Assembly (NCBI RefSeq): GCF_988242995.1 | Contig: NZ_OZ547043.1 | Strand: one strand, 5' to 3' | DNA: 64,000 nt | Shown: in pieces, positions 1 through 29,684 of the stretch | Numbering within the stretch: position 1 is the stretch's first letter | How the letters are laid out: each line of letters opens with the position of its first letter | Notes under the pieces: generated by a model | Databases searched by the model: none | Seen by the model: the letters and a program-made list of their open reading frames with translations, nothing else | Told to the model about the DNA's origin: nothing | Made by a program: the position numbers and the translations under genes

Positions 1-43
1 TGTGCTTTACGCCGCCATTAACCCGGCTATCAGGTACAAGTAA
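1..43 (+). CDS. gsiC: 3' end of glutathione ABC transporter permease GsiC (partial, runs off window start)
   Basis: Open frame ending ...[16 protein letters not shown] at 41-43 immediately upstream of gsiD; synteny with gsiABCD operon. Confidence 0.5.
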
Positions 44-45
44 GG

Positions 46-957
46 ATGCGACTATTTAACTGGCGACGTCAGGCGGCGTTAAACGCCATGCCACTGGTCA
101 AACCTGACCAGGTACGTACACCGTGGCATGAATTCTGGCGACGATTTCGCCGTCAGCATATGGCGATGACCGCCGCATTATTCGTTATTTTATTGATTGT
201 AGTGGCCATTTTTGCACGCTGGATCGCTCCCTATGACGCCGAAAATTATTTCGATTATGACAATCTGAATAACGGACCTTCTTTGCAGCACTGGTTTGGC
301 GTTGATTCACTGGGGCGTGACATTTTCAGCCGTGTCCTGGTTGGTGCACAAATCTCGCTGGCGGCGGGCGTGTTTGCCGTGTTTATCGGTGCGGCGATCG
401 GGACGTTGCTGGGCTTGCTGGCTGGATATTATGAAGGCTGGTGGGATCGGCTGATCATGCGCATTTGCGATGTGCTGTTTGCCTTCCCGGGTATTTTACT
501 GGCGATCGCTGTTGTTGCGGTGTTGGGAAGCGGCATTGCTAACGTGATTATTGCAGTCGCCATTTTTTCCATCCCCGCGTTTGCCCGACTGGTGCGCGGC
601 AACACGCTGGTGTTGAAACAGCAAACCTTTATTGAGTCAGCACGCAGTATTGGTGCCAGCGATATGACCATTTTATTGCGTCATATCTTGCCCGGGACCG
701 TCTCGTCTATCGTGGTGTTTTTCACCATGCGCATCGGTACCTCGATTATCTCTGCCGCCAGCCTGTCATTTCTCGGCCTCGGTGCGCAGCCGCCGACACC
801 AGAGTGGGGAGCAATGCTCAATGAGGCACGAGCGGATATGGTTATCGCGCCGCATGTCGCTATTTTTCCGGCCCTGGCTATTTTTCTGACTGTACTGGCG
901 TTCAATTTGTTGGGTGATGGTTTACGCGATGCGCTGGATCCGAAAATTAAAGGATAG
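46..957 (+). CDS. gsiD: glutathione ABC transporter permease GsiD
   Basis: 303-aa ORF; sequence matches my recollection of K-12 GsiD (YliD) full length; ABC permease hydrophobic profile. Confidence 0.93.
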
Positions 958-1134
958 TTACGTTTGAATATTGCTTGAAAGGGTAATCACCTCACAGGAA
1001 ATTATTGCCCTAAGCAAGTGTTGTAACTTTCTGCTGATTTTGTAGAATCGGGTAATTTGGTTAAAAAGCCGCAGCAAGGGACTGTTTTTGCAGCGGCACA
1101 GCGTTCAGACAGTTATTTTGTTAAATGTATTAAC

Positions 1135-3483
1135 ATGCTGAGTTTATACGAAAAGATAAAGATAAGGCTGATAATTTTATTTTTATTGGCAGCACTGTCA
1201 TTTATTGGCCTTTTTTTCATCATTAACTATCAACTGGTATCGGAACGCGCGGTAAAACGTGCCGATAGCCGCTTTGAACTTATTCAGAAAAACGTTGGCT
1301 ATTTCTTTAAAGATATTGAACGTTCGGCCCTGACATTAAAGGACTCACTGTATTTATTAAAAAATACAGAGGAGATTCAACGCGCTGTGATCCTTAAAAT
1401 GGAAATGATGCCATTTTTAGACTCGGTGGGACTGGTACTTGATGATAATAAATATTATCTCTTTTCGCGGAGGGCGAATGATAAAATCGTTGTTTATCAT
1501 CAGGAAGAAGTAAATGGACCGCTTGTCGACGAGTCAGGGCGGGTTATTTTTGCCGATTTTAATCCATCGAAACGACCATGGTCGGTGGCTTCAGATGACT
1601 CTAACAACAGCTGGAATCCGGCCTACAATTGCTTTGATCGTCCGGGTAAAAAATGTATCTCTTTTACGCTACGCATCAACGGCAAAGATCACGATTTGTT
1701 AGCGGTGGATAAAATACATGTCGATTTAAACTGGCGATATCTGAACGAGTATCTTGATCAAATCAGCGCTAATGATGAAGTTCTATTTTTGAAACAAGGC
1801 CATGAGATCATTGCCAAGAATCAACTCGCGCGTGAAAAACTGATTATTTATAATAGCGAAGGTAATTATAATATTATTGATTCTGTCGATACTGAATATA
1901 TTGAAAAAACATCAGCGGTGCCAAACAACGCATTATTCGAAATCTATTTTTATTATCCTGGCGGTAATTTATTGAACGCATCAGATAAACTTTTTTATCT
2001 GCCGTTTGCTTTCATTATTATCGTATTGCTGGTGGTTTATTTAATGACCACTCGTGTGTTCCGTCGGCAATTTTCTGAAATGACCGAGCTGGTTAATACG
2101 CTGGCGTTTTTGCCCGACTCAACGGATCAGATCGAGGCTCTGAAAATTCGCGAAGGCGATGCGAAAGAGATTATCAGCATCAAAAATTCGATCGCGGAAA
2201 TGAAAGATGCTGAAATTGAACGGGCAAATAAATTGCTCTCGCTGATCTCTTACGATCAGGAAAGCGGTTTTATTAAAAATATGGCGATTATTGAGTCCAA
2301 CAATAATCAGTATCTGGCTGTGGGGATCATCAAACTGTGTGGTCTGGAAGCTGTGGAAGCGGTGTTTGGTGTTGATGAACGCAATAAAATCGTCAGGAAA
2401 TTGTGTCAGCGAATTGCCGAGAAATATGCGCAATGCTGCGATATCGTGACATTTAATGCCGATCTCTATTTACTCCTGTGCCGGGAAAATGTACAGACGT
2501 TTACCCGTAAGATAGCGACGGTAAACGATTTTGACAGCAGTTTTGGCTACCGCAATCTGCGCATCCATAAGTCTGCTATTTGTGAACCTTTGCAGGGGGA
2601 AAACGCCTGGAGTTACGCAGAAAAGCTGAAACTGGCGATTTCCAGTATCCGCAACCATATGTTCTCAGAGTTTATTTTCTGTGATGACGCGAAACTCAAC
2701 GAAATAGAAGAGAATATCTGGATTGCGCGTAATATTCGCCATGCAATGGAAATTGGCGAACTATTCCTCGTCTATCAACCGATCGTTGATATTAACACCC
2801 GCGCCATTCTGGGCGCGGAGGCGTTGTGCCGTTGGGTGTCTGCGGAGCGGGGGATCATTTCACCGCTAAAGTTCATTACCATTGCTGAAGATATCGGGTT
2901 TATCAATGAGCTGGGTTATCAGATTATTAAAACGGCAATGGGTGAATTCAGACATTTTAGTCAGCGTGCGTCGCTGAAGGATGATTTCTTACTGCATATT
3001 AATGTTTCGCCCTGGCAGTTAAACGAACCACACTTTCATGAGCGTTTTACCACCATCATGGAAGAAAATGGCCTGAAGGCGAACAGCCTCTGTGTTGAGA
3101 TCACTGAAACCGTGATCGAGCGAATTAATGAACATTTTTATCTCAATATTGAACAACTGCGTAAACAAGGAGTACGGATATCGATTGATGACTTTGGCAC
3201 CGGTTTGTCAAACCTGAAACGTTTTTATGAAATTAATCCAGATAGCATAAAGGTGGACTCACAATTTACCGGCGATATTTTCGGTACTGCGGGAAAAATT
3301 GTGCGCATTATTTTCGATCTGGCACGCTATAACCGGATCCCGGTGATTGCGGAAGGCGTAGAGAGCGAAGACGTTGCGCGCGAATTAATCAAATTAGGAT
3401 GTGTTCAGGCTCAGGGGTATCTGTACCAGAAACCCATGCCGTTCTCCGCCTGGGATAAAAGTGGAAAATTAGTAAAAGAGTAG
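1135..3483 (+). CDS. pdeI: c-di-GMP phosphodiesterase PdeI (YliE), membrane-anchored EAL-domain protein
   Basis: ORF track 1057-3483 trimmed to ATG at 1135 ([12 protein letters not shown]...) giving 782 aa as in K-12; N-terminal TM helix, C-terminal EAL-type region (…ELGYQ…, …DDFGTG…). Confidence 0.9.
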
Positions 3484-3490
3484 TTTACGT

Positions 3491-4819
3491 ATGTCCAGAA
3501 TCAATAAGTTCGTACTTACAGTCAGTCTGCTGATTTTTATCATGATTTCAGCAGTTGCCTGCGGGATCTACACTCAAATGGTAAAGGAACGGGTGTATGG
3601 CCTGAAACAGTCCGTTATTGATACTGCTTTTGCGGTGGCAAATATTGCTGAATATCGGCGTAGCGTGGCAATTGATCTCATCAACACGCTAAACCCCACG
3701 GAGGAACAGCTGTTGGTTGGTTTGCGCACAGCTTACGCCGACTCGGTTTCACCCTCTTATTTGTACGATGTCGGTCCTTATCTGATTTCCAGTGACGAAT
3801 GTATTCAGGTAAAGGAGTTCGAGAAAAATTATTGTGCAGATATTATGCAGATTGTGAAGTATCGACATGTCAAAAATACAGGGTTTATCTCTTTTGACGG
3901 TAAAACCTTCGTCTATTACCTCTATCCGGTAACTCATAATCGTAGTCTGATATTTTTGCTTGGTCTGGAGCGTTTTTCTTTACTGTCAAAATCGCTGGCG
4001 ATGGATAGCGAGAACCTGATGTTCTCTCTGTTTAAGAACGGTAAACCGGTGACCGGTGATGAATATAATGCTAAAAACGCCATCTTCACCGTTTCGGAAG
4101 CGATGGAGCACTTCGCCTATTTGCCGACCGGATTGTACGTATTTGCGTATAAAAAAGATGTTTATTTGCGGGTCTGTACATTGATTATTTTCTTTGCCGC
4201 ATTGGTGGCAGTGATATCGGGTGTCAGTTGCCTCTATCTGGTACGCAGAGTGATTAATCGTGGTATTGTGGAGAAAGAAGCCATCATTAATAACCATTTT
4301 GAACGCGTACTGGATGGCGGGCTTTTCTTTTCAGCTGCCGATGTCAAAAAACTCTACAGTTTGTATAACTCGGCGTTCCTGGATGACCTGACCAAAGCAA
4401 TGGGCAGAAAATCCTTTGACGAAGATTTAAAAGCGCTGCCGGAAAAAGGCGGTTATTTGTGCCTGTTTGACGTCGATAAATTCAAAAACATCAACGACAC
4501 CTTCGGTCATTTGCTGGGCGATGAAGTGTTGATGAAAGTGGTGAAAATCCTTAAATCACAGATCCCCGTAGATAAAGGTAAAGTCTACCGCTTCGGCGGT
4601 GACGAATTTGCGGTGATTTATACGGGTGGAACGCTGGAAGAGTTGCTATCGATTCTAAAAGAAATTGTTCATTTCCAGGTGGGAAGCATTAATTTAAGCA
4701 CCAGTATCGGTGTAGCGCATTCAAATGAATGTACTACCGTTGAACGCTTGAAAATGCTGGCGGATGAGCGGCTGTATAAGAGTAAGAAAAACGGCAGGGC
4801 GCAGATTAGCTGGCAGTAG
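3491..4819 (+). CDS. dgcI: diguanylate cyclase DgcI (YliF), membrane GGDEF protein
   Basis: 442-aa ORF, N-terminal TM segments, C-terminal GGDEF-like region (RFGGDEF at ...[14 protein letters not shown]). Confidence 0.9.
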
Positions 4820-4888
4820 AATTAGAATAGTGTTAGTACCCCTTAATCAAGGGGTACTAATGAATGTGGTAAATCATTTGCAAACATT

Positions 4889-5218
4889 TTACTTTGCAAA
4901 AACTTCCGGCCCTTTTATTGCCAATGTATTCAAAATACGTAATGCCGGGCCGCTCGGTTTTATTTCATTACGTTCCCATTTCGAGACACTTTCTTTTGAC
5001 ATTCCCATTGTATGTGCCAGCACGGATTGTGACATGCCGTATCGGGTGCGGATGGCTTTGATCTCTTCACCCGTCATTGATTTGACTTTGGCTATACGGG
5101 CGCTGACTTCACGAGCTTTGACCATGACGGCAATGGCATCAACTTCACTATCAGACATCAGGCCCAGTGCATTCAGTTCCTTTGCATCTTCCAGCATCAT
5201 TTGTAATTTATCGCTCAT
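4889..5218 (-). CDS. XRE-family helix-turn-helix antitoxin (HigA-like)
   Basis: 109-aa ORF with HTH segment (IRTRYGMSQSVLAHTMGMSKESVSKWERNEIKPSGPALRILN); lies downstream of and overlaps the toxin ORF by 11 bp; this locus is not in K-12 gene order (yliF and rimO are adjacent b-numbers). Confidence 0.8.
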   Translation of the reverse strand: MSDKLQMMLEDAKELNALGLMSDSEVDAIAVMVKAREVSARIAKVKSMTGEEIKAIRTRYGMSQSVLAHTMGMSKESVSKWERNEIKPSGPALRILNTLAIKGPEVFAK

Positions 5219-5594
5219 TTTTCACCTCAATCAAAAAGCCAGTTTCGATCAAATCCTCTATTTGCTTATTGCTAAAGGCCAGAAATGCATTTGCCATTTT
5301 TTTGTAGGCCGCCAGTTCATCATCTTCGATTTCTTTGGTTCCTTTACTGCTTAGACCACTCTTGGACCAACCATCATAAAAAAACACATGATTTGCTGAT
5401 TTAAAAAAGATAATTGTTCTGGCTCCACCACTCTTTCCTTGTTGGAGGGGTAAACGTTTTTTGATGACACCGCTACCTAAATCAGCCTCCCATATGCCCT
5501 GCATCACTTCTTCAGCGGCAGCCATGAGAACTTTATCGTGAATACCAAGTTTTTTCGTGCTTTGGCTGAATCGTCTTGCCTTATACACACCCAT
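5208..5594 (-). CDS. RelE/ParE-superfamily toxin (HigB/Gp49-like)
   Basis: 128-aa ORF, toxin-first arrangement, motif ...KRLPLQQGKSGGARTIIFF...FFYDGWSKS... typical of Gp49/HigB-like toxins; SD AAGGATGG ~8 nt upstream of ATG. Confidence 0.75.
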   Translation of the reverse strand: MGVYKARRFSQSTKKLGIHDKVLMAAAEEVMQGIWEADLGSGVIKKRLPLQQGKSGGARTIIFFKSANHVFFYDGWSKSGLSSKGTKEIEDDELAAYKKMANAFLAFSNKQIEDLIETGFLIEVKNER

Positions 5595-5609
5595 ACATCC
5601 ATCCTTGTG

Positions 5610-5635
5610 GTAATGTTTACTATAGTAACCATTAC
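5610..5635 (-). promoter_or_regulatory. Imperfect 26-bp palindrome (12-bp arms) just upstream of the toxin start; candidate TA operator overlapping promoter
   Basis: gtaatgtttact-at-agtaaccattac read directly; position 15-40 bp upstream of toxin ATG; TA operons are typically autoregulated via such operators. Confidence 0.45.
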
Positions 5636-5819
5636 GCTTATTTCAAGTAATTGCGATCAAAACTTTAATTTGGTGTGAAAAAGTGAGAGTTGCCTCGAGT
5701 ACGATTCATTTTTCTCGATTTATGCGTCAGGGGATTTTGTGCGTAAGGGTAGGACATCGGGAAGGGCAGCAGAGGCAGATCGAAGAACAATATCCTTGTT
5801 AGATCTGCCTTAAGATTAA

Positions 5820-7145
5820 TTAAACCCGGCTACCCCACAAATCGTACTCATCGGCGTGCTCGACTTTCACACGCAGGATATCACCCGGCTTAACGTTGGT
5901 TTCACCATTGAGATAAACCGCGCCGTCGATTTCCGGTGCATCTGCCATGCTGCGACCAATCGCGCCTTCTTCGTCCACTTCGTCGATAATCACCAGAATT
6001 TCACGGCCCACTTTCTCTTGCAGGCGCTCGGCGGAAATCTGCTGCTGCAGCTGCATGAAACGGTTCCAGCGTTCTTCTTTCACTTCTTCCGGAACCTGGT
6101 CAGGCAGGGCATTGGCGTCTGCACCTTCAACCGGGCTGTATTTAAAGCAGCCAACGCGATCCAGACGCGCTTCTTTCAGGAAGTCGAGTAGCATCTGGAA
6201 ATCTTCTTCCGTCTCGCCAGGGAAGCCGACAATAAAGGTTGAGCGTAGGGTCAGTTCCGGGCAGATTTCGCGCCACTGTTTGATGCGCGCCAGTTGGCGA
6301 TCTACAGAACCCGGACGCTTCATCAGTTTGAGAATGCGCGGGCTGGCGTGCTGCAACGGAATGTCCAGATACGGCAGGATTTTGCCTTCTGCCATCAGTG
6401 GGATGACGTCGTCCACATGCGGATAAGGGTAAACGTAGTGCAGACGTGTCCAGATCCCCAGTTTCGATAACTGTTCGCACAGGCTGACCATGCTGGTTTT
6501 TACCGGCTCGCCGTTGTGGAAGCCAGTACGATGTTTAACATCAACGCCATAGGCGGAAGTATCCTGCGAGATCACCAGAATCTCTTTAACGCCAGCATCT
6601 ACCAGACGTTTCGCTTCACTTAACACTTCGCCAATCGGACGGCTCACCAGGTCGCCGCGCATAGACGGAATAATGCAGAAGGTGCAGCGGTGATTACAGC
6701 CTTCAGAAATTTTCAGATAGGCATAATGACGCGGCGTCAGTTTCACGCCTTGTTCTGGCACCAGGCTCAGGAATGGGTTGTGTTTCGGTTTTGGCACGTA
6801 GTGATGAACGTGCTCCAGAACCTGCTCATAGCTATGAGGCCCGGTGATTTCCAGCACTTTCGGGTGGACTTCGCGGATCTGATCTTCTTTTGCCCCCAGA
6901 CAACCGGTCACAATTACCTTGCCGTTTTCATTCAACGCTTCACCAATGGCTTCCAGTGATTCTTGTACCGCGCTGTCAATAAAGCCGCAGGTGTTGACGA
7001 TCACCATGTCCGCATCGTCATAGCTCGGTACCACGTCATAACCTTCAGTGCGTAGTTCGGTGAGAATACGCTCTGAATCAACAAGGTTTTTCGGACAGCC
7101 AAGGGAAACAAAGCCGATTTTCGGCTGGGGAGTTACTTTGCTCAT
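5820..7145 (-). CDS. rimO: ribosomal protein S12 methylthiotransferase RimO
   Basis: 441-aa ORF, radical-SAM CxxxCxxC ([10 protein letters not shown]) and MTTase N-terminal cysteines; matches K-12 RimO. Confidence 0.95.
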
Positions 7146-7357
7146 AGCTTAAAAAATATTCAGTTACAGGAAAGGTCAGGGCAGGGATTCTACAGAGTTC
7201 TGGATAAAATTTGTATCGCAATCTCATTCGCTGGCGGAGGCGAAGGAAATGTAAATTTTGTTAATTCGGCGTGAAGAATTGATCCTGGACAGCATTTTGC
7301 TCAAAAAATAGCCATACTATTTAATTGCAACAAGGCTGGAAAGAGGAGGATCGAAGT

Positions 7358-7741
7358 ATGTTCGTTGACAGACAGCGAATCGATCTGCTGAACCGGTTGA
7401 TCGACGCACGCGTTGACCTCGCCGCATACGTGCAACTGAGGAAGGCAAAAGGATACATGTCCGTCAGCGAAAGCAATCATCTACGAGATAACTTTTTTAA
7501 ACTGAATCGCGAACTGCACGATAAATCGCTGCGGTTGAATCTTCATCTGGATCAGGAAGAGTGGAGTGCTCTTCATCATGCTGAAGAAGCATTAGCGACA
7601 GCCGCAGTATGTTTGATGAGTGGGCACCATGATTGCCCGACTGTTATTACCGTCAACGCCGATAAGCTTGAAAATTGTCTGATGAGCTTAACGCTGAGTA
7701 TCCAGAGCCTGCAGAAGCACGCCATGCTTGAGAAGGCCTGA
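7358..7741 (+). CDS. bssR: biofilm regulator BssR
   Basis: ORF trimmed to ATG at 7358 (MFVDRQRIDLL...), 127 aa, SD GAGGAGGA upstream. Confidence 0.88.
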   Translation: MFVDRQRIDLLNRLIDARVDLAAYVQLRKAKGYMSVSESNHLRDNFFKLNRELHDKSLRLNLHLDQEEWSALHHAEEALATAAVCLMSGHHDCPTVITVNADKLENCLMSLTLSIQSLQKHAMLEKA

Positions 7742-7851
7742 AAACTAAGGGGGAGAAAGCGTCTCCCCCTTCATGTTTAAGTTTTTGTAAAAATGAATTT
7801 GTTATCTCCTCCACTGACTACGCTTTAAGCCAGAGTCAATCCGGAGGCGTT

Positions 7852-8912
7852 ATGCATCGACAATCCTTTTTCCTTGTGCCCCTTATTTGTCTTTCTTCCG
7901 CTCTCTGGGCGGCTCCTGCAACGGTAAATGTCGAAGTACTGCAGGACAAACTCGACCATCCCTGGGCGCTGGCCTTTTTACCCGACAATCACGGTATGTT
8001 AATCACTCTGCGCGGCGGCGAGTTGCGTCACTGGCAAGCAGGAAAAGGATTATCTGCGCCGCTTTCCGGAGTGCCGGAAGTTTGGGCGCACGGGCAGGGT
8101 GGCCTGCTGGATGTGGTTTTAGCGCCTGATTTTGCTCAGTCTCGCCGCATCTGGTTAAGTTATTCCGAAGTTGGCGATGATGGCAAAGCCGGAACTGCTG
8201 TGGGTTATGGCCGCTTAAGTGATGATCTCTCAAAGGTGACCGACTTCCGCACCGTCTTTCGCCAGATGCCAAAACTGTCTACCGGCAACCATTTTGGCGG
8301 GCGGCTGGTATTCGACGGTAAAGGTTATCTTTTTATTGCTCTGGGCGAAAACAATCAGCGCCCGACGGCGCAGGATCTGAATAAATTACAGGGCAAACTG
8401 GTGCGTCTGACCGACCAGGGCGAAATCCCGGATGATAATCCTTTTATAAAGGAATCCGGTGCGCGCGCCGAGATCTGGTCTTATGGCATTCGTAATCCGC
8501 AAGGAATGGCGATGAAATTAATATCCCGCAAAAAGGCAAAAACTACGGCTGGCCGCTGGCAACCTGGGGAATCAACTATTCAGGCTTTAAGATACCGGAA
8601 GCGAAAGGGGAGATCGTCGCCGGGACCGAGCAACCTGTTTTTTACTGGAAAGATTCGCCCGCCGTGAGCGGCATGGCCTTCTATAACAGCGATAAATTCC
8701 CCCAGTGGCAGCAAAAATTATTTATTGGCGCGCTGAAAGATAAAGATGTCATTGTGATGAGCGTCAACGGCGACAAAGTGACAGAAGATGGCCGTATTTT
8801 AACGGACAGAGGGCAGCGAATTCGTGATGTTCGCACTGGACCCGACGGTTATTTATACGTTCTCACCGACGAGTCCAGTGGGGAATTACTTAAAGTTAGC
8901 CCACGCAATTAG
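7852..8912 (+). pseudogene. yliI: yliI (soluble aldose sugar dehydrogenase) disrupted by frameshift
   Basis: Two overlapping ORFs (7852-8667 and 8664-8912) carry the N- and C-terminal parts of one protein; total span 1061 bp is not a multiple of 3; frame switches just after ...NPQGMAM (~8518). Confidence 0.7.
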
Positions 8913-9535
8913 CTAACGGGAATCATCACCACTTTGCGCACTGCTGGGCGTTCAGTGAGTTGCTGATACCAGCGTTGCAGATTTGGACGCGGTGTCCAGG
9001 TCAGGCCAACGTTAAACAAATTGTAGATGAACGGAGCGATAGCGATATCGCCCACACCAAACTCGTCGCCAGAGAACCATTTTACTTTTGCCAGTTCCGC
9101 ATCGAGCAGGGCAAACAGGGCGTCGCACTCTTTACAACTGGCATCAATGGCGGCCTGATCGCGCTCTTCCGGTGGTGTTCTGACTAATCCCATCAGGATC
9201 CCGCGATGAGCATTACTGAGCGTCTGGTTTGCCCAGTCCATCCATTTTTCTGCTTCCGCACGACGTGCCGGTGAGTCGATCCACAGGCGTTTTTGCCCGT
9301 ACTGTGCCGCCAGATAGCGGACAATGGCGTTTGATTCCCAAAGAATGAGATCACTTTCGTCGTCACGCAACAACGGCACCAGCCCGTTAGGGTTCATCGC
9401 CAGAAAATCAGCATCGTGATTTATCCCAAACTCACGGCCCGCGAGAATTTGCTCATAAGGTAGTTCCAGTTCTTCGAGCGTCAGCAATACTTTTTTTACG
9501 TTGGTTGAATTATTCCGACCCCACAGCGTAATCAT
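8909..9535 (-). CDS. gstB: glutathione S-transferase GstB
   Basis: ORF trimmed to [12 protein letters not shown]..., 208 aa, GST fold motifs. Confidence 0.9.
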
Positions 9536-9781
9536 ACTCACCCCTTTTCCGACAGGCAGCCACAGGCTGAACAGGACTCCGATGGTGAAGTAAAGTTAAC
9601 TTTTAAGCAACAGCTGGCAAAAAAATGACACCAGAAGCAGCGAAGCGGCAGGATATTGCATAAACTTTAAAAACTTTACCAACTTACGGTTTCTTTAAGT
9701 TTGTGTGTGCGTTATTAATCACCGAACTTATCATACGGCGATATAACGTATTTTTTTTGAATGGATACTCGGGTGGCATTT

Positions 9782-10984
9782 ATGACGCAATACTCCTCTC
9801 TCCTTCGTGGTCTTGCAGCGGGTTCTGCATTTTTATTCCTTTTTGCCCCAACGGCATTCGCGGCGGAACAAACCGTTGAAGCGCCGAGCGTGGATGCGCG
9901 TGCATGGATTTTAATGGATTACGCCAGCGGTAAAGTGCTGGCAGAAGGCAATGCGGATGAAAAACTGGACCCCGCGAGCCTGACTAAAATCATGACCAGC
10001 TATGTGGTTGGGCAGGCGCTTAAGGCCGATAAGATTAAACTCACCGATATGGTGACGGTCGGTAAAGATGCCTGGGCGACGGGAAATCCGGCACTGCGTG
10101 GTTCATCGGTAATGTTCCTTAAACCGGGCGATCAGGTTTCAGTGGCAGACCTGAACAAAGGTGTGATTATCCAGTCCGGTAATGACGCCTGTATTGCGCT
10201 GGCCGATTACGTTGCCGGGAGCCAGGAGTCATTTATTGATCTGATGAATGGTTATGCCAAAAAACTGGGTCTGACCAACACTACCTTCCAGACGGTGCAC
10301 GGTCTGGATGCGCCGGGGCAGTTCAGTACCGCGCGCGATATGGCATTGCTGGGTAAAGCATTAATCCACGATGTGCCGGAAGAGTACGCCATTCATAAAG
10401 AGAAAGAGTTCACCTTCAACAAAATTCGACAGCCTAACCGTAACCGTCTGCTATGGAGCAGCAATCTGAATGTTGATGGCATGAAGACAGGAACCACGGC
10501 AGGCGCGGGATATAATCTGGTTGCTTCGGCTACCCAGGGCGATATGCGTTTGATCTCCGTAGTACTGGGTGCGAAAACTGACCGTATCCGTTTTAATGAG
10601 TCTGAGAAATTATTGACCTGGGGTTTCCGCTTCTTTGAAACCGTGACGCCAATTAAACCTGATGCCACCTTTGTGACTCAGCGCGTCTGGTTTGGTGATA
10701 AGAGCGAAGTGAATCTCGGGGCAGGTGAAGCGGGCTCAGTGACCATACCGCGTGGGCAGCTGAAAAACCTGAAAGCGAGCTACACGTTAACGGAACCGCA
10801 GCTTACCGCACCGCTGAAAAAAGGTCAGGTTGTCGGGACCATTGATTTCCAGCTTAACGGTAAATCCATTGAGCAGCGTCCGCTGATCGTGATGGAAAAT
10901 GTGGAAGAGGGCGGATTCTTTGGGCGGATGTGGGATTTCGTTATGATGAAATTCCATCAGTGGTTCGGCAGCTGGTTCTCTTAA
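9782..10984 (+). CDS. dacC: D-alanyl-D-alanine carboxypeptidase DacC (PBP6)
   Basis: ORF trimmed to [10 protein letters not shown]..., signal peptide, SxxK (SLTK), SGN and KTG motifs. Confidence 0.93.
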
Positions 10985-11030
10985 TCTTCTGATAACCGGA
11001 TGGCGCGAAACGTCATCCGGTAATACGTCA

Positions 11031-11789
11031 TTAATACATCAACTTAATACGCTGCGTCTGCGCGTACTTCACATACTCATCTTCCGGGCAACAATCGCTC
11101 ACCACAATATCAAAGCGTTTCAGGTCACCCATGCGTGCCGGACGCACCTTGCCAAATTTACTGTGGTCGACAACCAGCACATGCTTTTGCGCCATCGACA
11201 TGGCCCAGTGTTTTACCGGCAACTCTTCAAGATTAAAACAGGTAGCGCCCTTACTGACATGCACCCCCGCCGCGGAATAAAAAGCGATATCCGGGCAAAA
11301 ATTATTCAGCGTTTGCTGAAAATCGATGGGTTTGAAAATGGCGTTACTGGCGTGAAATTCACCACCGCAAAGAAACGCGCGGCAATGGGGTTTCTCTTTC
11401 AGCGCCAGAAAGGTATTTAGCGAATAACAAACGGCGGTGAAAGGGATTTCATTATCAATCGCTTCAATAATCCACGGTGTGGTGGTGCCACAGTCAAAAA
11501 AGAGGGTCTGATCGGGTTCTACCAGCGTCGCAGCCAGTTTTGCCGCCCGACGTTTTTCTTCCACCAGGCGGGATTTTTGATCGCTTAACAGGTAATGGCT
11601 GGCGCTGCGCGGTTCCAGAACAATATAGCCGCCGAGCAAAACGACGGGCGCACTGTGGTTGTTCAGATCGCGACGAATCGTCATCTCCGAAACCCCAAGC
11701 AGGGCGGCGGCGTCTTTAAGATGTAACTTATCGCTGCGTTTTAATTCTTGCAGCAGCTGCCCGATACGCTCTTCGCGACGTGTTTCCAT
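11031..11789 (-). CDS. deoR: DNA-binding transcriptional repressor DeoR
   Basis: 252-aa ORF, N-terminal HTH, DeoR sugar-binding C-terminus; matches K-12 DeoR. Confidence 0.93.
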   Translation of the reverse strand: METRREERIGQLLQELKRSDKLHLKDAAALLGVSEMTIRRDLNNHSAPVVLLGGYIVLEPRSASHYLLSDQKSRLVEEKRRAAKLAATLVEPDQTLFFDCGTTTPWIIEAIDNEIPFTAVCYSLNTFLALKEKPHCRAFLCGGEFHASNAIFKPIDFQQTLNNFCPDIAFYSAAGVHVSKGATCFNLEELPVKHWAMSMAQKHVLVVDHSKFGKVRPARMGDLKRFDIVVSDCCPEDEYVKYAQTQRIKLMY

Positions 11790-19142: not shown

Positions 19143-19520
19143 GTGAAACATAAACAACGTTGGGCGGGGGCAATCTGCTGTTTTGTCCTCTTCATTGTGG
19201 TGTGCCTTTTTCTGGCGACGCACATGAAAGGCGCTTTTCGGGCTGCCGGGCATCCTGAAATCGGCTTGCTGTTTTTCATTCTTCCTGGAGCAGTTGCCAG
19301 CTTCTTTTCACAGCGTAGAGAAGTCCTGAAACCTCTGTTTGGCGCAATGCTGGCGGCACCCTGTTCAATGCTTATTATGCGGCTGTTTTTTTCACCGACC
19401 CGCTCATTCTGGCAAGAGCTGGCATGGTTACTAAGCGCGGTGTTCTGGTGTGCGCTGGGGGCACTGTGTTTCTTATTTATCAGTAGTTTGTTTAAACCAC
19501 AGCACAGAAAAAATCAGTAA
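19143..19520 (+). CDS. ybjM: inner membrane protein YbjM
   Basis: 125-aa hydrophobic ORF, GTG start preceded by GGAGG. Confidence 0.8.
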   Translation: MKHKQRWAGAICCFVLFIVVCLFLATHMKGAFRAAGHPEIGLLFFILPGAVASFFSQRREVLKPLFGAMLAAPCSMLIMRLFFSPTRSFWQELAWLLSAVFWCALGALCFLFISSLFKPQHRKNQ

Positions 19521-19549
19521 AGCCCTCAACGCGAGGGCTTGTCAGACGA

Positions 19550-19807
19550 TCAGGCGTCCAGATTTTCTTTCACCCATGCAGCAAAATCGGTATAGCCGCC
19601 GATATGTTGCTGATCGACAAAAATCTGCGGCACGGTTTCTACGGGTTTACCTGCCTTTTGTTGTAGATCTTCTTTAGTGATCCCTTCCGCACGAATATCT
19701 ACATACTGATACTGAAAATCATCGCGTTCATTGCTCAATTTCTCAGCCAGATCTTTTGCACGCACACAGTAAGGGCAACCCGGACGACCAAAAATAACGG
19801 TTTGCAT
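19550..19807 (-). CDS. grxA: glutaredoxin 1
   Basis: ORF trimmed to MQTVIFGRPGCPYC..., 85 aa, CPYC active site. Confidence 0.95.
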   Translation of the reverse strand: MQTVIFGRPGCPYCVRAKDLAEKLSNERDDFQYQYVDIRAEGITKEDLQQKAGKPVETVPQIFVDQQHIGGYTDFAAWVKENLDA

Positions 19808-19966
19808 TATTTCTCTCCTCATAGATTTATGCCTGTAATGATCACGCTAAAATGTATTCGCTGAAAGTAGGTTTAACCTGTTGCATTAATTGCTAAAAGC
19901 TATAACTGTTAAACACAATACAGTGAAAAGTTTTAGACTGAAGGCTCACTTTGCAGAGGGAAGCGT

Positions 19967-20254
19967 ATGCGCGCGATCGGTAAATTGCCTAAAAGCGTGT
20001 TGATACTGGAATTTATCGGAATGATGTTGCTGGCGGTGGCGCTGCTGTCGGTAAGCGACTCCCTGTCGCTGCCTGAGCTATTTTCTCGGCCAGAAGTGCA
20101 GATTCTGATGATTTTTCTCGGTGTTTTGCTCATGCTTCCCGCTGCGGTGGTGGTTATTTTTCAGGTGGCAAAACGTCTTGCCCCACAGCTGATGAACCGT
20201 CCACCGCAATATTCACGTTCAGAAAGAGAAAAAGATAATGACGCCAACCATTGA
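19967..20254 (+). CDS. ybjC: small membrane protein YbjC
   Basis: 95-aa ORF, two TM helices; overlaps nfsA start as in the ybjC-nfsA-rimK-ybjN cluster. Confidence 0.82.
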   Translation: MRAIGKLPKSVLILEFIGMMLLAVALLSVSDSLSLPELFSRPEVQILMIFLGVLLMLPAAVVVIFQVAKRLAPQLMNRPPQYSRSEREKDNDANH

Positions 20255-20960
20255 ACTTATTTGTGGCCATCGCTCCATTCGCCATTTCACTGATGAACCC
20301 ATTTCCGAAGCGCAGCGTGAGGCGATTATTAACAGCGCCCGTGCGACGTCCAGTTCCAGTTTTTTGCAGTGCAGTAGCATTATTCGCATTACCGACAAAG
20401 CGTTACGTGATGAACTGGTGACGCTGACCGGCGGGCAAAAACACGTAGCGCAAGCGGCGGAGTTCTGGGTGTTCTGTGCCGACTTTAACCGCCATTTACA
20501 GATCTGTCCGGATGCACAACTTGGCCTGGCGGAACAACTGTTGCTCGGTGTCGTTGATACGGCAATGATGGCGCAGAATGCATTAACCGCAGCGGAATCG
20601 CTGGGATTGGGCGGGGTATATATCGGCGGCCTGCGCAATAATATTGAAGCGGTGACGGAACTTCTGAAATTACCGCAGCATGTTCTGCCGCTGTTTGGGC
20701 TGTGCCTTGGCTGGCCTGCGGATAATCCAGATCTGAAGCCGCGTTTACCGGCCTCCATTTTGGTGCATGAAAACAGCTATCAACCGCTGGATAAAGACGC
20801 ACTGGCGCAGTATGACGAACAACTGGCGGAATATTACCTCACCCGTGGCAGCAATAATCGCCGGGATACCTGGAGCGATCATATCCGCCGAACAATCATT
20901 AAAGAAAGCCGCCCATTTATTCTGGATTATTTGCACAAACAGGGTTGGGCGACGCGCTAA
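20238..20960 (+). CDS. nfsA: oxygen-insensitive NADPH nitroreductase NfsA
   Basis: 240-aa ORF matching K-12 NfsA (MTPTIELICGHRSIRHF...). Confidence 0.95.
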   Translation: MTPTIELICGHRSIRHFTDEPISEAQREAIINSARATSSSSFLQCSSIIRITDKALRDELVTLTGGQKHVAQAAEFWVFCADFNRHLQICPDAQLGLAEQLLLGVVDTAMMAQNALTAAESLGLGGVYIGGLRNNIEAVTELLKLPQHVLPLFGLCLGWPADNPDLKPRLPASILVHENSYQPLDKDALAQYDEQLAEYYLTRGSNNRRDTWSDHIRRTIIKESRPFILDYLHKQGWATR

Positions 20961-21020
20961 AACCGCCACATCGATGTATGATACGCGGGCTTTTGACCAG
21001 GTCTGACAGAGAGGTGCAGG

Positions 21021-21923
21021 GTGAAAATTGCCATATTGTCCCGGGATGGAACGCTCTATTCGTGTAAGCGGCTGCGTGAAGCCGCTATACAGCGCGGTCA
21101 CCTGGTTGAAATTCTTGATCCGCTTTCTTGCTACATGAACATAAATCCTGCGGCGTCTTCTATTCACTACAAAGGCCGCAAGTTACCCCATTTTGACGCA
21201 GTGATCCCGCGTATTGGCACCGCCATTACCTTTTATGGGACGGCGGCACTGCGCCAGTTCGAGATGCTGGGGAGCTATCCGCTCAATGAGTCGGTCGCCA
21301 TTGCCCGGGCGCGTGACAAATTGCGTTCCATGCAACTGCTGGCGCGTCAGGGCATCGACCTGCCTGTCACGGGCATTGCGCATTCGCCGGATGATACCAG
21401 CGATTTAATCGACATGGTCGGTGGTGCGCCGCTGGTGGTCAAGCTGGTTGAAGGCACGCAGGGAATTGGTGTCGTGCTGGCGGAGACGCGCCAGGCGGCG
21501 GAAAGCGTGATTGACGCTTTCCGCGGTCTGAACGCGCATATTCTGGTGCAGGAATATATCAAAGAGGCGCAAGGGTGCGATATCCGCTGTCTGGTTGTTG
21601 GCGATGAAGTGGTCGCTGCGATTGAACGGCGGGCGAAAGAGGGCGATTTTCGTTCCAATTTGCATCGTGGCGGCGCGGCAAGCGTCGCCAGTATCACACC
21701 ACAGGAGCGTGAAATCGCGATAAAAGCCGCGCGAACGATGGCGCTGGACGTTGCTGGTGTGGATATTCTGCGTGCTAATCGCGGGCCGTTGGTGATGGAA
21801 GTGAATGCGTCGCCGGGGCTGGAAGGAATAGAAAAAACCACCGGTATCGACATCGCGGGTAAAATGATCCGCTGGATCGAACGCCACGCTACGACAGAAT
21901 ATTGCCTGAAAACGGGTGGTTAG
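21021..21923 (+). CDS. rimK: ribosomal protein S6 glutamate ligase RimK (ATP-grasp)
   Basis: 300-aa ORF, ATP-grasp motifs; matches K-12 RimK. Confidence 0.95.
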
Positions 21924-22010
21924 TCGCAATCACATTACTGATCATGGTTTTGCCTGCGCTTTTTGCGTAAGCTGTGCCGGTCTTTTTATCGAAAGAGGTT
22001 GTACAAAATT

Positions 22011-22487
22011 ATGACATCGCTGGTCGTTCCTGGTCTGGATACGCTGCGTCAATGGCTCGATGACCTGGGGATGAGTTTTTTTGAATGTGATAACTGTCAG
22101 GCTCTGCATCTGCCCCATATGCAGAATTTCGACGGTGTCTTTGATGCCAAAATCGATCTGATCGATAACACGATCCTGTTTTCTGCCATGGCGGAAGTCC
22201 GACCTTCAGCCGTATTGCCCCTGGCGGCAGATTTATCTGCCATCAATGCCAGTTCGCTGACCGTGAAAGCATTTCTTGATATGCAGGATGATAATCTGCC
22301 AAAGCTGGTGGTTTGCCAGTCTTTATCCGTTATGCAGGGCGTAACCTATGAGCAGTTTGCATGGTTCGTGCGTCAGAGCGAAGAGCAGATTTCGATGGTC
22401 ATTCTTGAAGCTAATGCCCATCAACTGCTGTTACCGACTGACGATGAAGGGCAAAACAACGTTACCGAAAACTATTTCCTCCACTGA
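22011..22487 (+). CDS. ybjN: YbjN (putative sensory transduction regulator family)
   Basis: ORF trimmed to MTSLVVPGLDTLRQW..., 158 aa. Confidence 0.88.
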   Translation: MTSLVVPGLDTLRQWLDDLGMSFFECDNCQALHLPHMQNFDGVFDAKIDLIDNTILFSAMAEVRPSAVLPLAADLSAINASSLTVKAFLDMQDDNLPKLVVCQSLSVMQGVTYEQFAWFVRQSEEQISMVILEANAHQLLLPTDDEGQNNVTENYFLH

Positions 22488-22837
22488 TAACTCCTTTCGA
22501 GTACGCAGTCGCTGCCGCAGTGACTGCGTGCTGCAAAATTATCTGCTGTTTTTAACCTTTTCTTAAAGATTATTTCACTTCTCTTGTGCCGATTTGGCTT
22601 TATCACATAGAGCAAATACGCATAAAAATTTGTTAAATACCGTTTTTTAATCCGAGCTATAGTCTCAAACCCTGGCTAAAGTTATTCTTGCGATGCTTTT
22701 ATATAGCGAGCAGTGCTGGCCGGGAGAGAGTTCTCTTTTCTTACACCGCGCCGATAAAAAATATGCACGTTTATTGCATATCTTTCAGTGTGACAACTTT
22801 TGTTCGTTTGTTAACGAACTTTCAGAAGGAAAGAGAT

Positions 22838-23950
22838 ATGACCGCCTTAAATAAAAAATGGCTATCGGGTCTGGTTGCGGGTGCTCTGATGGCCGTCTCT
22901 GTCGGCACGCTCGCGGCTGAACAAAAAACACTCCACATTTATAACTGGTCTGATTATATCGCCCCGGACACGGTGGCCAATTTTGAAAAAGAAACCGGTA
23001 TTAAAGTCGTCTACGATGTTTTCGACTCTAACGAAGTACTGGAAGGCAAATTAATGGCGGGTAGCACCGGCTTTGACCTGGTGGTGCCGTCAGCAAGCTT
23101 TCTTGAACGCCAGTTGACTGCGGGAGTTTTCCAGCCGCTGGATAAAAGCAAATTGCCGGAGTGGAAGAATCTCGACCCGGAACTGCTGAAGTTGGTTGCC
23201 AAACACGACCCGGATAATAAATTTGCTATGCCCTATATGTGGGCGACAACCGGGATTGGCTATAACGTCGATAAAGTCAAAGCGGTGCTGGGCGAAAACG
23301 CGCCCGTCGATAGCTGGGACTTGATCCTCAAACCTGAAAATCTGGAAAAACTGAAAAGCTGCGGCGTCTCTTTCCTTGATGCACCGGAAGAAGTGTTTGC
23401 TACCGTGCTGAATTATCTCGGCAAAGATCCCAACAGCACTAAAGCGGATGATTACACCGGACCGGCAACCGATCTGCTGTTAAAGCTGCGCCCGAACATT
23501 CGTTATTTCCATTCATCTCAATACATTAACGACCTGGCAAACGGCGATATTTGCGTCGCTATCGGCTGGGCAGGTGATGTCTGGCAGGCGTCAAACCGCG
23601 CGAAGGAAGCGAAGAATGGCGTTAATGTCTCGTTCTCGATTCCGAAAGAAGGGGCGATGGCGTTCTTTGATGTCTTCGCCATGCCTGCGGATGCCAAAAA
23701 TAAAGACGAAGCCTATCAGTTCCTGAATTACCTGCTGCGCCCGGATGTGGTGGCGCATATTTCCGACCATGTGTTCTATGCCAACGCGAACAAAGAAGCT
23801 ACGCCGCTGGTAAGCGCGGAAGTGCGTGATAATCCAGGGATTTATCCTCCGGCGGACGTTCGTGCGAAGTTGTTCACTCTGAAAGTGCAGGATCCAAAAA
23901 TAGACCGTGTGCGCACCCGCGCGTGGACCAAAGTGAAGAGCGGAAAATAA
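22838..23950 (+). CDS. potF: putrescine ABC transporter periplasmic binding protein PotF
   Basis: ORF track 22688-23950 trimmed to ATG at 22838 (MTALNKKWLSGLVAG..., signal peptide), 370 aa. Confidence 0.93.
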   Translation: MTALNKKWLSGLVAGALMAVSVGTLAAEQKTLHIYNWSDYIAPDTVANFEKETGIKVVYDVFDSNEVLEGKLMAGSTGFDLVVPSASFLERQLTAGVFQPLDKSKLPEWKNLDPELLKLVAKHDPDNKFAMPYMWATTGIGYNVDKVKAVLGENAPVDSWDLILKPENLEKLKSCGVSFLDAPEEVFATVLNYLGKDPNSTKADDYTGPATDLLLKLRPNIRYFHSSQYINDLANGDICVAIGWAGDVWQASNRAKEAKNGVNVSFSIPKEGAMAFFDVFAMPADAKNKDEAYQFLNYLLRPDVVAHISDHVFYANANKEATPLVSAEVRDNPGIYPPADVRAKLFTLKVQDPKIDRVRTRAWTKVKSGK

Positions 23951-24044
23951 TCCGCAGTCGTAGATGCCGGACGGGCGCACCACGCCCGCCGGCAATTCGC
24001 ACCATTATGGTGCGCTTGCACACATTCAATGCCGGAGAGCAGCC

Positions 24045-25178
24045 GTGAATGACGCTATCCCTCGCCCGCAGGCGAAAACCCGTAAGGCGCTGACGCCGCT
24101 ATTAGAAATCCGTAATCTGACTAAATCTTACGATGGTCAGCATGCGGTCGATGATGTCAGCCTGACCATCTATAAAGGCGAAATCTTCGCGCTGCTGGGC
24201 GCATCCGGCTGTGGCAAGTCCACGCTGCTGCGTATGCTGGCAGGTTTCGAACAACCTTCTGCCGGGCAGATTATGCTCGATGGCGTCGATTTGTCACAGG
24301 TTCCGCCTTACCTGCGCCCCATCAATATGATGTTTCAGTCTTACGCGCTGTTTCCGCATATGACCGTGGAACAGAACATCGCTTTTGGCCTGAAACAGGA
24401 CAAACTACCGAAAGCGGAAATTGCCAGCCGGGTCAATGAGATGCTCGGCCTGGTGCATATGCAGGAGTTCGCCAAACGCAAACCGCATCAGCTTTCCGGC
24501 GGTCAGCGACAGCGTGTGGCACTGGCCCGAAGCCTTGCCAAGCGCCCGAAACTATTACTGCTCGATGAGCCTATGGGCGCGCTGGATAAAAAGCTGCGTG
24601 ACCGGATGCAGCTTGAAGTGGTGGATATTCTGGAGCGTGTCGGTGTGACCTGCGTGATGGTTACTCACGATCAGGAAGAGGCGATGACCATGGCGGGGCG
24701 CATCGCCATTATGAATCGTGGGAAATTTGTCCAGATTGGCGAACCGGAAGAGATCTATGAGCATCCGACCACCCGCTATAGCGCTGAATTTATTGGCTCG
24801 GTTAATGTCTTTGAATGTGTACTCAAAGAGCGCCAGGAAGATGGTCTGGTGCTTTATTCGCCGGGGCTGGTGCATCCACTGAAAGTCGATGTAGATGCTT
24901 CGGTGGTCGATAACGTGCCGGTGCATGTGGCGCTTCGCCCGGAAAAAATCATGCTTTGCGATCAACCGCCTGCTGACGGCTACAATTTTGCGGTGGGGGA
25001 GGTGATACACATTGCCTATCTCGGCGATCTTTCGGTGTATCACGTTCGTCTGAAAAGTGGGCAAATGATTAGCGCCCAGCTACAAAACGCCCATCGTCAT
25101 CGTAAAGGGTTACCGACCTGGGGCGATGAAGTGCGTTTGTGCTGGGAAGTGGACAGCTGTGTGGTGCTGACGGTTTAA
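24045..25178 (+). CDS. potG: putrescine ABC transporter ATP-binding protein PotG
   Basis: Trimmed to GTG at 24045 (MNDAIPRPQ...), 377 aa; Walker A GASGCGKST, signature LSGGQRQR. Confidence 0.92.
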   Translation: MNDAIPRPQAKTRKALTPLLEIRNLTKSYDGQHAVDDVSLTIYKGEIFALLGASGCGKSTLLRMLAGFEQPSAGQIMLDGVDLSQVPPYLRPINMMFQSYALFPHMTVEQNIAFGLKQDKLPKAEIASRVNEMLGLVHMQEFAKRKPHQLSGGQRQRVALARSLAKRPKLLLLDEPMGALDKKLRDRMQLEVVDILERVGVTCVMVTHDQEEAMTMAGRIAIMNRGKFVQIGEPEEIYEHPTTRYSAEFIGSVNVFECVLKERQEDGLVLYSPGLVHPLKVDVDASVVDNVPVHVALRPEKIMLCDQPPADGYNFAVGEVIHIAYLGDLSVYHVRLKSGQMISAQLQNAHRHRKGLPTWGDEVRLCWEVDSCVVLTV

Positions 25179-25187
25179 GGAGCAAAA

Positions 25188-26141
25188 ATGAGTACACTTG
25201 AACCTGCTGCCCAGTCGAAACCGCCGGGCGGATTTAAGCTGTGGTTGTCGCAGCTGCAAATGAAGCATGGGCGCAAACTGGTGATTGCGCTGCCGTATAT
25301 CTGGCTAATCCTGCTGTTTCTGCTGCCATTTCTGATTGTCTTTAAAATAAGCCTGGCGGAGATGGCGCGCGCTATTCCACCTTATACCGAACTGATGGAG
25401 TGGGCTGACGGGCAACTTTCCATCACTCTTAATCTCGGTAATTTCCTGCAACTGACCGACGATCCGCTCTATTTCGATGCTTATCTCCAGTCGTTACAGG
25501 TGGCGGCGATTTCGACTATTTGCTGTTTACTGATCGGCTATCCGCTGGCGTGGGCGGTGGCGCACAGTAAGCCTTCGACCCGTAATATCTTATTACTACT
25601 GGTGATCCTGCCGTCGTGGACCTCGTTTCTGATTCGTGTCTACGCCTGGATGGGAATATTAAAAAATAACGGCGTGCTGAATAACTTTCTGCTGTGGCTG
25701 GGGGTTATCGATCAACCGCTGACAATTCTTCATACCAATCTGGCCGTTTATATCGGCATTGTTTACGCCTACGTGCCGTTTATGGTGCTGCCGATTTATA
25801 CCGCGTTGATTCGTATTGATTATTCGCTGGTGGAAGCAGCACTGGATCTCGGTGCACGACCGCTGAAAACGTTCTTTACTGTGATCGTGCCGCTGACCAA
25901 AGGGGGGATTATTGCCGGATCGATGCTGGTATTTATCCCGGCTGTGGGCGAGTTTGTGATCCCGGAACTGCTCGGTGGCCCGGACAGCATCATGATCGGG
26001 CGCGTGCTGTGGCAGGAGTTCTTTAACAACCGCGACTGGCCGGTGGCCTCGGCGGTAGCGATCATCATGTTGCTGCTGCTAATTGTGCCGATAATGTGGT
26101 TCCACAAACACCAGCAAAAAAGCGTGGGAGAACACGGATGA
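25188..26141 (+). CDS. potH: putrescine ABC transporter permease PotH
   Basis: 317-aa membrane ORF; matches K-12 PotH. Confidence 0.93.
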   Translation: MSTLEPAAQSKPPGGFKLWLSQLQMKHGRKLVIALPYIWLILLFLLPFLIVFKISLAEMARAIPPYTELMEWADGQLSITLNLGNFLQLTDDPLYFDAYLQSLQVAAISTICCLLIGYPLAWAVAHSKPSTRNILLLLVILPSWTSFLIRVYAWMGILKNNGVLNNFLLWLGVIDQPLTILHTNLAVYIGIVYAYVPFMVLPIYTALIRIDYSLVEAALDLGARPLKTFFTVIVPLTKGGIIAGSMLVFIPAVGEFVIPELLGGPDSIMIGRVLWQEFFNNRDWPVASAVAIIMLLLLIVPIMWFHKHQQKSVGEHG

Positions 26142-26983
26142 ATAATTTACCGGTAGTTCGTTCGCCCTGGCGGATTGTGATTTTGCTGCTGGGCTTCACC
26201 TTTCTCTACGCGCCAATGCTGATGCTGGTGATCTATTCATTCAACAGCTCGAAGCTGGTGACGGTGTGGGCCGGCTGGTCAACGCGCTGGTATGGCGAAT
26301 TATTGCGCGATGACGCGATGATGAGTGCGGTTGGTTTAAGCCTGACAATTGCGGCCTGTGCGGCGACGGCGGCGGCGATCCTCGGGACGATTGCGGCGGT
26401 GGTGCTGGTGCGCTTTGGCAGGTTTCGCGGATCAAATGGTTTTGCCTTTATGATCACCGCGCCGCTGGTGATGCCAGATGTCATCACGGGCTTGTCGCTA
26501 TTGTTGTTATTCGTCGCGCTTGCTCATGCCATTGGCTGGCCTGCGGACCGCGGTATGCTCACCATCTGGCTGGCGCATGTCACTTTCTGTACGGCTTATG
26601 TGGCAGTCGTTATTTCGTCGCGTCTGCGGGAACTGGATAGCTCGATAGAAGAAGCAGCGATGGATCTTGGTGCGACGCCACTGAAAGTGTTTTTCGTCAT
26701 TACGCTACCGATGATCATGCCCGCGATCATTTCTGGCTGGTTACTGGCTTTTACTTTGTCGCTTGATGATCTGGTTATCGCCAGCTTTGTTTCCGGGCCG
26801 GGAGCCACCACGTTACCGATGCTGGTCTTTTCCAGCGTGCGGATGGGGGTGAATCCGGAAATCAACGCCCTGGCAACATTGATCCTCGGTGCGGTCGGAA
26901 TTGTCGGATTTATCGCCTGGTATCTGATGGCTCGCGCAGAAAAACAGCGGATACGCGACATCCAGCGTGCAAGACGTGGCTGA
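26138..26983 (+). CDS. potI: putrescine ABC transporter permease PotI
   Basis: Trimmed to MNNLPVVRSP..., ATGA overlap with potH stop; 281 aa. Confidence 0.93.
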   Translation: MNNLPVVRSPWRIVILLLGFTFLYAPMLMLVIYSFNSSKLVTVWAGWSTRWYGELLRDDAMMSAVGLSLTIAACAATAAAILGTIAAVVLVRFGRFRGSNGFAFMITAPLVMPDVITGLSLLLLFVALAHAIGWPADRGMLTIWLAHVTFCTAYVAVVISSRLRELDSSIEEAAMDLGATPLKVFFVITLPMIMPAIISGWLLAFTLSLDDLVIASFVSGPGATTLPMLVFSSVRMGVNPEINALATLILGAVGIVGFIAWYLMARAEKQRIRDIQRARRG

Positions 26984-27042
26984 AGACACTAAAATTTGCC
27001 AACCTGGCTACATAATGCCGCGCATGTCGCGGCATTGTTTTC

Positions 27043-27531
27043 ATGGAAGACGAAACGTTGGGATTTTTTAAGAAAACATCTTCATCTCATGCTCGCCTGA
27101 ATGTGCCTGCGCTGGTGCAGGTGGCGGCGCTCGCCATTATTATGATCCGTGGCCTCGACGTGCTGATGATTTTCAATACGCTGGGCGTGCGCGGTATTGG
27201 CGAGTTCATTCATCGCAGCGTACAAACCTGGAGTCTAACGCTGGTCTTTTTAAGCAGTCTGGTGTTGGTTTTTATTGAGATCTGGTGTGCGTTTTCACTG
27301 GTGAAAGGGCGTCGCTGGGCGCGCTGGCTGTATCTGTTGACACAAATCACGGCCGCAAGTTACTTGTGGGCGGCTTCGCTGGGGTATGGTTATCCGGAGC
27401 TGTTCAGCATTCCCGGTGAATCAAAACGTGAAATCTTCCATAGCCTGATGCTGCAGAAGCTGCCGGATATGCTCATCCTGATGCTGCTGTTCGTTCCCTC
27501 GACCAGTCGGCGGTTCTTCCAGTTGCAATAA
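27043..27531 (+). CDS. ybjO: inner membrane protein YbjO
   Basis: 162-aa hydrophobic ORF; synteny. Confidence 0.85.
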   Translation: MEDETLGFFKKTSSSHARLNVPALVQVAALAIIMIRGLDVLMIFNTLGVRGIGEFIHRSVQTWSLTLVFLSSLVLVFIEIWCAFSLVKGRRWARWLYLLTQITAASYLWAASLGYGYPELFSIPGESKREIFHSLMLQKLPDMLILMLLFVPSTSRRFFQLQ

Positions 27532-27571
27532 TGTGTATAATCGTCGCCCCTGATGATGTGAAGGTCAATGT

Positions 27572-28699: not shown

Positions 28700-28722
28700 A
28701 AAAGCCGCAGGTGCGGCTTTCT
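28698..28722. terminator. bidirectional intrinsic terminator between convergent rlmC and artJ
   Basis: aaaaAGCCGCAggTGCGGCTttct: 7-bp perfect stem flanked by A-run and T-run. Confidence 0.7.
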
Positions 28723-28727
28723 GAATC

Positions 28728-29459: not shown

Positions 29460-29519
29460 GATGGAACTCCCGTCTGTCAATCTTATGATTTTTGGCCGTG
29501 TCTGCGGCATGGGATAACA

Positions 29520-29570: not shown

Positions 29571-29571
29571 A

Positions 29572-29672: not shown

Positions 29673-29684
29673 CACGAAGCCACA

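Follow-up and report, generated by a model that had tools for sequence, protein, structure and literature searches.

The window analyzed here is a 64,000-nucleotide stretch of E. coli chromosome (contig NZ_OZ547043.1 of assembly GCF_988242995.1), one part of which carries the gene order rimO, bssR, yliI, gstB, and dacC. The rimO gene (5820-7145, minus strand) is followed by bssR (7358-7741, plus strand), which is intact and encodes 127 aa, and by a broken yliI that occupies its usual slot in the bssR-gstB interval (7852-8912, plus strand). The gstB gene (8909-9541, minus strand) is intact and convergent, its 3' end overlapping the yliI stop codon by 4 nt, and dacC (9761-10984, plus strand) lies beyond it. 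Between dgcI and rimO, the window encodes a RelE/ParE-family toxin (5211-5594, minus strand) and an HTH antitoxin (4892-5218, minus strand) that are 100% identical to the annotated pair of strain NY1601, whereas the dgcI-rimO gap of K-12 MG1655 measures only 46 bp.

The original prediction had named the gene at 7852-8912 as yliI (asd), encoding a PQQ-dependent soluble sugar dehydrogenase, and this assignment is supported by its GSDH domain (PF07995), by DNA identity, and by its locus. A megablast search of 5,426 complete E. coli genomes found yliI in 5,424 of them, with 100% DNA identity between annotated yliI and the window copy. The best matches are identical at 100% in two pieces, which together span 1116 bp as compared to the 1061 bp present in the window. 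The intact gene is 1116 bp long and encodes 371 aa both in K-12 MG1655 (b0837, locus L014), in agreement with the length originally given for the K-12 protein, and in strain 266917_2 (locus L001, WP_000555051.1). The window copy thus resembles E. coli Asd and the GSDH family in sequence and lies at the conserved site on the chromosome, flanked by bssR and gstB, as expected of an orthologue; what it lacks is an unbroken 371-codon frame for the complete six-blade propeller.

The full-length 371-aa protein has PDB 2g8s as a match (E 4e-243), with the 2g8s chain aligned from residue 21, and mature YliI starts at approximately A21. PDB 2G8S is the structure of E. coli Asd (Southall et al. 2006, cited in PMC6881789). 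The fold is a six-blade propeller in which carbonyls of the main chain hold Ca2+, while PQQ is bound by a conserved C-terminal Arg (PMC6881789). YliI acts with PQQ in the periplasm and is present at low abundance (PMC13088180; bioRxiv 10.1101/2022.06.07.495086), and both PQQ uptake by E. coli and PQQ-dependent growth of a PTS mutant have been described (10.1101/2022.06.07.495086).

Translation of the window copy places the two parts of the protein in different frames. The 5' remnant (7852-8514, plus strand) comprises codons 1-221 in the native frame, signal peptide included, and is 100% identical to intact alleles. The ATG open reading frame that contains it runs from 7852 to 8667 and encodes 271 aa, of which the first 221 residues, ending in ...IRNPQGMAM, belong to YliI. 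The remainder is an out-of-frame tail (8515-8667, plus strand) of 50 aberrant codons (KLISRKKAKTTAGRW...) that is closed by a TGA stop codon at 8665-8667. The 3' remnant (8514-8912, plus strand) holds residues E240-N371 and the stop codon in a second frame. Translation of this frame from 8514 gives 132 residues, EINIPQKGKNYGWP...LKVSPRN and a stop, which is the C terminus of YliI, and the remaining two frames of the 3' segment contain many stops. Consistent with this split, positions 1-189 of the Pfam GSDH profile are matched by the 5' open reading frame (E 1.9e-70) and positions 207-332 by the 3' frame (E 7.7e-47), as compared to positions 1-332 for the intact protein, and tblastn aligns residues 236-371 of NY1601 YliI at window positions 8502-8909. 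The division into 221 N-terminal and about 130 C-terminal residues, with the switch placed immediately after ...NPQGMAM at ∼8518-8525, had been read from the DNA at the outset and agrees with the translation, the Pfam split, and the alignment. A -1 shift is required to join the two halves, and the 3' remnant is untranslatable from the yliI start. An 82-aa GTG open reading frame inside the 3' remnant (8664-8912, plus strand), which gene callers also report in other strains with a broken yliI, is a by-product and not a gene.

The lesion itself is a simple one. Alignment of the window copy with yliI of 266917_2 reveals a single uninterrupted gap that is exactly 55 bp long, the approximate number of bases originally thought to be missing, and no other difference. 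Since 55 bp is not a multiple of three (55 = 18 x 3 + 1), the frame is lost after Met221 and translation meets the stop codon of the tail. Two perfect copies of the 10-bp sequence TGGCGATGAA form a direct repeat in the intact allele, the first at gene positions 656-665 and the second at 711-720 (2156-2165 and 2211-2220 of L001); they lie 55 bp apart in the order ...CAAGGAA TGGCGATGAA TCCGTGG...CGCGCGG TGGCGATGAA ATTAAT.... This pair is the longest direct repeat within yliI. In the window, a sole surviving copy of TGGCGATGAA marks the deletion junction (8507-8516, plus strand), so that one copy of the repeat and the 45-bp spacer, 55 bp in total, have been lost (gene positions 666-720 or an equivalent register). 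The spacer sequence of the intact allele, TCCGTGGAGTAATGCACTATGGCTGAATGAACATGGCCCGCGCGG, is gone from the window gene, and the 25-mer CAAGGAATGGCGATGAAATTAATAT would mark the deletion allele. Both endpoints therefore fall in a direct repeat of which one copy is kept, as slippage or microhomology deletion, the mechanism suggested beforehand, would leave them; the chance that a random deletion would be flanked by 10 bp of identity is ∼4^-10, or ∼1e-6.

A shorter repeat had initially been reported at this junction, namely GATGAA. A direct repeat is indeed located there, but the full repeat is the 10-bp TGGCGATGAA, and the match is reduced to an exact GATGAA only in K-12-type copies. The second copy reads TGGTGATGAA in the K-12 allele and in several others, with a synonymous C-to-T change that makes Gly238 GGT, and the 6-mer probably stems from such a K-12-like, imperfect second copy. 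Alignment with the K-12 gene leads to the same deletion: the same 55 nt are absent, and mismatches number 9 across the left-hand 665 nt and 2 across the right-hand 406 nt. A 40-nt probe carrying the GGC version of the second copy matches 842 of the 5,426 complete genomes, and the perfect 10-bp repeat is thus present in at least ∼15% of complete E. coli genomes. With respect to a possible hairpin as the stimulus of slippage, the 45-nt spacer folds no better than shuffled sequence (z +1.0 to +1.5), and a hairpin is neither needed nor indicated for the 55-bp deletion.

The junction was then sought in other genomes with a 40-nt probe in which each side, including the repeat, contributes 25 nt and so falls under the 28-nt megablast word. 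The probe had no exact match in the 5,426 complete E. coli genomes, and a mismatch-tolerant blastn search, with an E-value that excludes half-matches, likewise returned 0/5,426. The exact 40-mer and 25-mer were absent from metagenome contigs, the 40-mer was absent from species-representative genomes, and the 271-aa product had no exact counterpart among ∼15 billion predicted proteins. As controls of the probe design, the corresponding probe for the intact allele retrieved the 842 genomes given above and a probe for another indel junction of the window retrieved 107. Since none of the ∼842 genomes with the perfect repeat carries the 55-bp deletion, the event is rare, a point that counts against the explanation preferred below, as does the lack of a hairpin in the spacer.

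The closest complete genome is that of NY1601, isolated from chicken faeces in China, which is 99.8% identical over 25 kb. Over window positions 1-11,549 the two sequences have 0 mismatches and differ only by the 55-bp gap. The window shares 57.5 kb with NY1601, and across this region each of the other 53 NY1601 proteins is encoded by the window at full length and without gaps (53/53); YliI alone is split. The shared region contains only two further indels, both of them intergenic. The first is a 1-bp difference in poly-A length between artM and artJ (29581), where the window has one additional A relative to NY1601 inside a divergent tract. The second lies between aqpZ and lysO (46487-46495), where the window has one copy of GCGGCGATT and NY1601 has two copies with a G+C-rich spacer, a difference of 41 bp. 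This junction is common to 107 complete E. coli genomes and, being a common natural allele, was rejected as a sign of a systematic artefact. Based on the clean 11.5 kb and the 53 intact genes, a generally error-prone assembly was also rejected. Taken together, the unique junction, the identity of NY1601 over 11.5 kb, and the intact state of the other 53 genes indicate that the deletion is recent and strain-specific and lies within an otherwise clean assembly.

Several other features were observed in the window. Nearly all SNPs relative to NY1601 are located at ∼19,300-35,000, at roughly 10-20 per kb, in a block that runs from ybjM through potFGHI, artJ, and the art operon to ybjQ, as compared to 0-3 differences in 1-11.5 kb and in 36-57.5 kb; the block looks like a recombination tract. 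Between clpA and tRNA-Ser, positions 57107-57527 contain a 179-bp tandem repeat (2.4 copies, 97% identity), each unit of which holds a sequence resembling a tRNA 3' end (GGCGGTGAGGGGGGGATT...). NY1601 matches this repeat in several registers, and its copy number may differ there. The same interval contains a lone match to Rfam CRISPR-DR4 (57022-57049, plus strand) that scores 50 bits, where the gathering score is 35, and neither a CRISPR array nor cas genes were seen near it; we take the clpA-infA interval to be the site of E. coli type I-F CRISPR arrays or their vestiges. At tRNA-Ser(GGA) (57509-57596, minus strand), NY1601 carries an island of ∼12 kb with a tyrosine integrase, whereas in the window open reading frames follow directly after the tRNA gene and continue to position 64000. 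By their length and the K-12 gene order, we presume these to be infA (72 aa), aat (234 aa), cydC (573 aa), and cydD (588 aa). A 353-aa open reading frame with a TTG start is presumably trxB by length and gene order, K-12 TrxB having ∼321 aa.

The alternative that deserves the most attention is that yliI of the isolate is intact and that the 55 bp were lost through sequencing, assembly, or cloning, that is, in clones, in polishing, or in the assembly step. The allele is known from the window alone, and a singleton is also how an error would look; the sequence immediately on either side shows 100% identity to genomes in which the gene is whole, and cloned or amplified DNA can in general yield repeat-flanked deletions. 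However, the same assembly is free of mismatches over 11.5 kb and leaves every other gene of the region intact, with its further indels confined to intergenic positions and one of these common to 107 genomes. In addition, the typical errors of sequencing platforms are homopolymer indels of 1-2 bp rather than precise 55-bp deletions from repeat to repeat, and at 10 bp the repeat falls short of any k-mer length in common assembly use and as a general matter cannot collapse in k-mer or overlap assemblers. A genuine mutation is favored because the junction is unique, the flanks are clean, the endpoints fall on the 10-bp repeat, and this repeat is too short to collapse, and we consider an artefact to be unlikely.

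Broken copies of yliI are not restricted to the window. The leftover 82-aa open reading frame has been called on dozens of contigs, with Shigella fragments among the cluster, and ten contigs that carry it were examined for the lesion in yliI. Four contain a full-length yliI with internal stops (L004, L006, L007, and L010), three contain 1-bp deletions (L005, L008, and L009; the gene position affected is 742, 842, or the pair 385 and 738), and one contains larger deletions (L002). Among the assemblies, three have one stop in common, which leads to a 256-aa product. The final two contigs (L003 and L011, metagenome) were rejected as lesions, since they have only scaffold N-runs. In L009 (GCA_053309235.1), many neighboring genes are split as well, and the assembly looks to be error-rich and of low accuracy. 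The junction of the window occurs in none of the ten contigs. Recurrent, independent lesions of this kind fit weak or relaxed selection on an enzyme reliant on imported PQQ.

The recurrent inactivation of yliI in E. coli and Shigella assemblies could also be given a stronger meaning. It is conceivable that the GGC form of the repeat makes yliI deletion-prone, such that the gene is recurrently and irreversibly switched off, or that loss of YliI is advantageous in some niche. If the deletion-prone reading were true, the window would have caught one such switch-off event, but we regard this pair of proposals as highly doubtful. A deletion that was itself selected, or one that marks a clade as a lineage-wide pseudogene, is likewise very improbable. 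None of the other genomes and metagenomes searched contains the junction, the closest relative has an intact gene with identical flanks and thus leaves no clade to be marked, and the recurrence is explained equally well if selection is relaxed because the enzyme depends on external PQQ.

One further proposal is that the two frames are functional, either because programmed -1 ribosomal frameshifting joins them or because the fragments work as separate proteins. Slippage on A-AAA-AAG is established in E. coli. The sequence CGC AAA AAG at 8527-8535, read in the shifted frame, resembles this AAAAAG lysine slippery motif, and ribosomes that slipped by -1 at AAA AAG (8530-8535) would resume the native frame of the C terminus. 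However, the heptamer is imperfect, with C and not A at position 1, and AAAAAG is ordinary coding sequence of intact yliI that did not evolve with the split. Two frames arranged in this manner at the junction are found in none of the 5,424 genomes that bear yliI, and neither a conserved two-frame layout nor a dedicated slippery site is present. The rejoined product would still be without residues 222-239 and would carry ∼6 wrong residues in the propeller core, and, with regard to separate function, the 3' fragment has no signal peptide. Given a normal yliI sequence, a unique arrangement, and 18 missing core residues, programmed frameshifting at CGC AAA AAG was rejected, and a functional two-frame gene has a negligible probability.

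Our preferred explanation, to which we assign a probability of roughly 0.85, is that yliI of the window is a genuine, recent, strain-specific null allele, which arose in the sequenced isolate or its stock. The parent would have been the allele present in NY1601 and 266917_2, with its perfect pair of TGGCGATGAA copies. A nascent strand or a repair intermediate may have mispaired between the two copies, and a RecA-independent slipped-strand or microhomology-mediated deletion would then have dropped one copy together with the spacer. The resulting product is predicted to keep the signal peptide and approximately the first 57% of the six-blade β-propeller, and to be without residues 222-239 (NPWSNALWLNEHGPRGGD), roughly the last two blades, and the C-terminal Arg that binds PQQ. 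Such a propeller should be able neither to close nor to bind PQQ and Ca2+. The Ca2+ ligands Gly247 and Pro248 of sGDH may correspond to the HGPRGG loop that is deleted in the window gene, a correspondence on which the argument does not draw. The truncated product would be expected to lack PQQ/Ca2+-dependent sugar oxidation and is probably degraded in the periplasm.

Loss of YliI could be tolerated because the protein is a low-abundance accessory enzyme that would be active only with externally acquired PQQ; to our knowledge, E. coli is unable to synthesize PQQ. Given that gstB is convergent and intact, a polar effect is not expected, and with bssR also intact no neighboring gene should be affected. 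For annotation, the appropriate label is that of a yliI pseudogene with a frameshift due to a 55-bp deletion, in place of two hypothetical proteins. The allele provides a clean example of a short-repeat deletion with a known parent allele, and further supports the view that yliI is dispensable and frequently lost. Beyond this, it is an ordinary singleton pseudogene, in which a known gene was disrupted by a textbook mechanism, and no new biology is implied.

Compared with K-12 yliI (b0837, asd), the window gene has the same locus, the same neighbors, and the same GSDH domain (PF07995), with 11 nt differences over the 1061 retained positions. It differs in the missing 55 bp, in the frameshift after codon 221, and in the early stop, and the repeat of K-12 is imperfect (TGGTGATGAA). 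The allele encoding WP_000555051.1, found in 266917_2 and NY1601, is 100% identical at the nucleotide level over both retained segments, with the 55-bp deletion as the sole difference, and is inferred to be the parent. In GCA_000714265.1, GCA_000194725.2, and GCA_000713895.1, yliI is also inactivated and the same 82-aa open reading frame is left over, but the lesions are other ones. RecA-independent slipped-strand or microhomology deletion between short direct repeats is a classical mutational class in E. coli. The spacer of the window case is without a hairpin, and nothing sets the case apart from this class, with which it shares the loss of one repeat copy and the spacer, a repeat of 10 bp, and a period of 55 bp.
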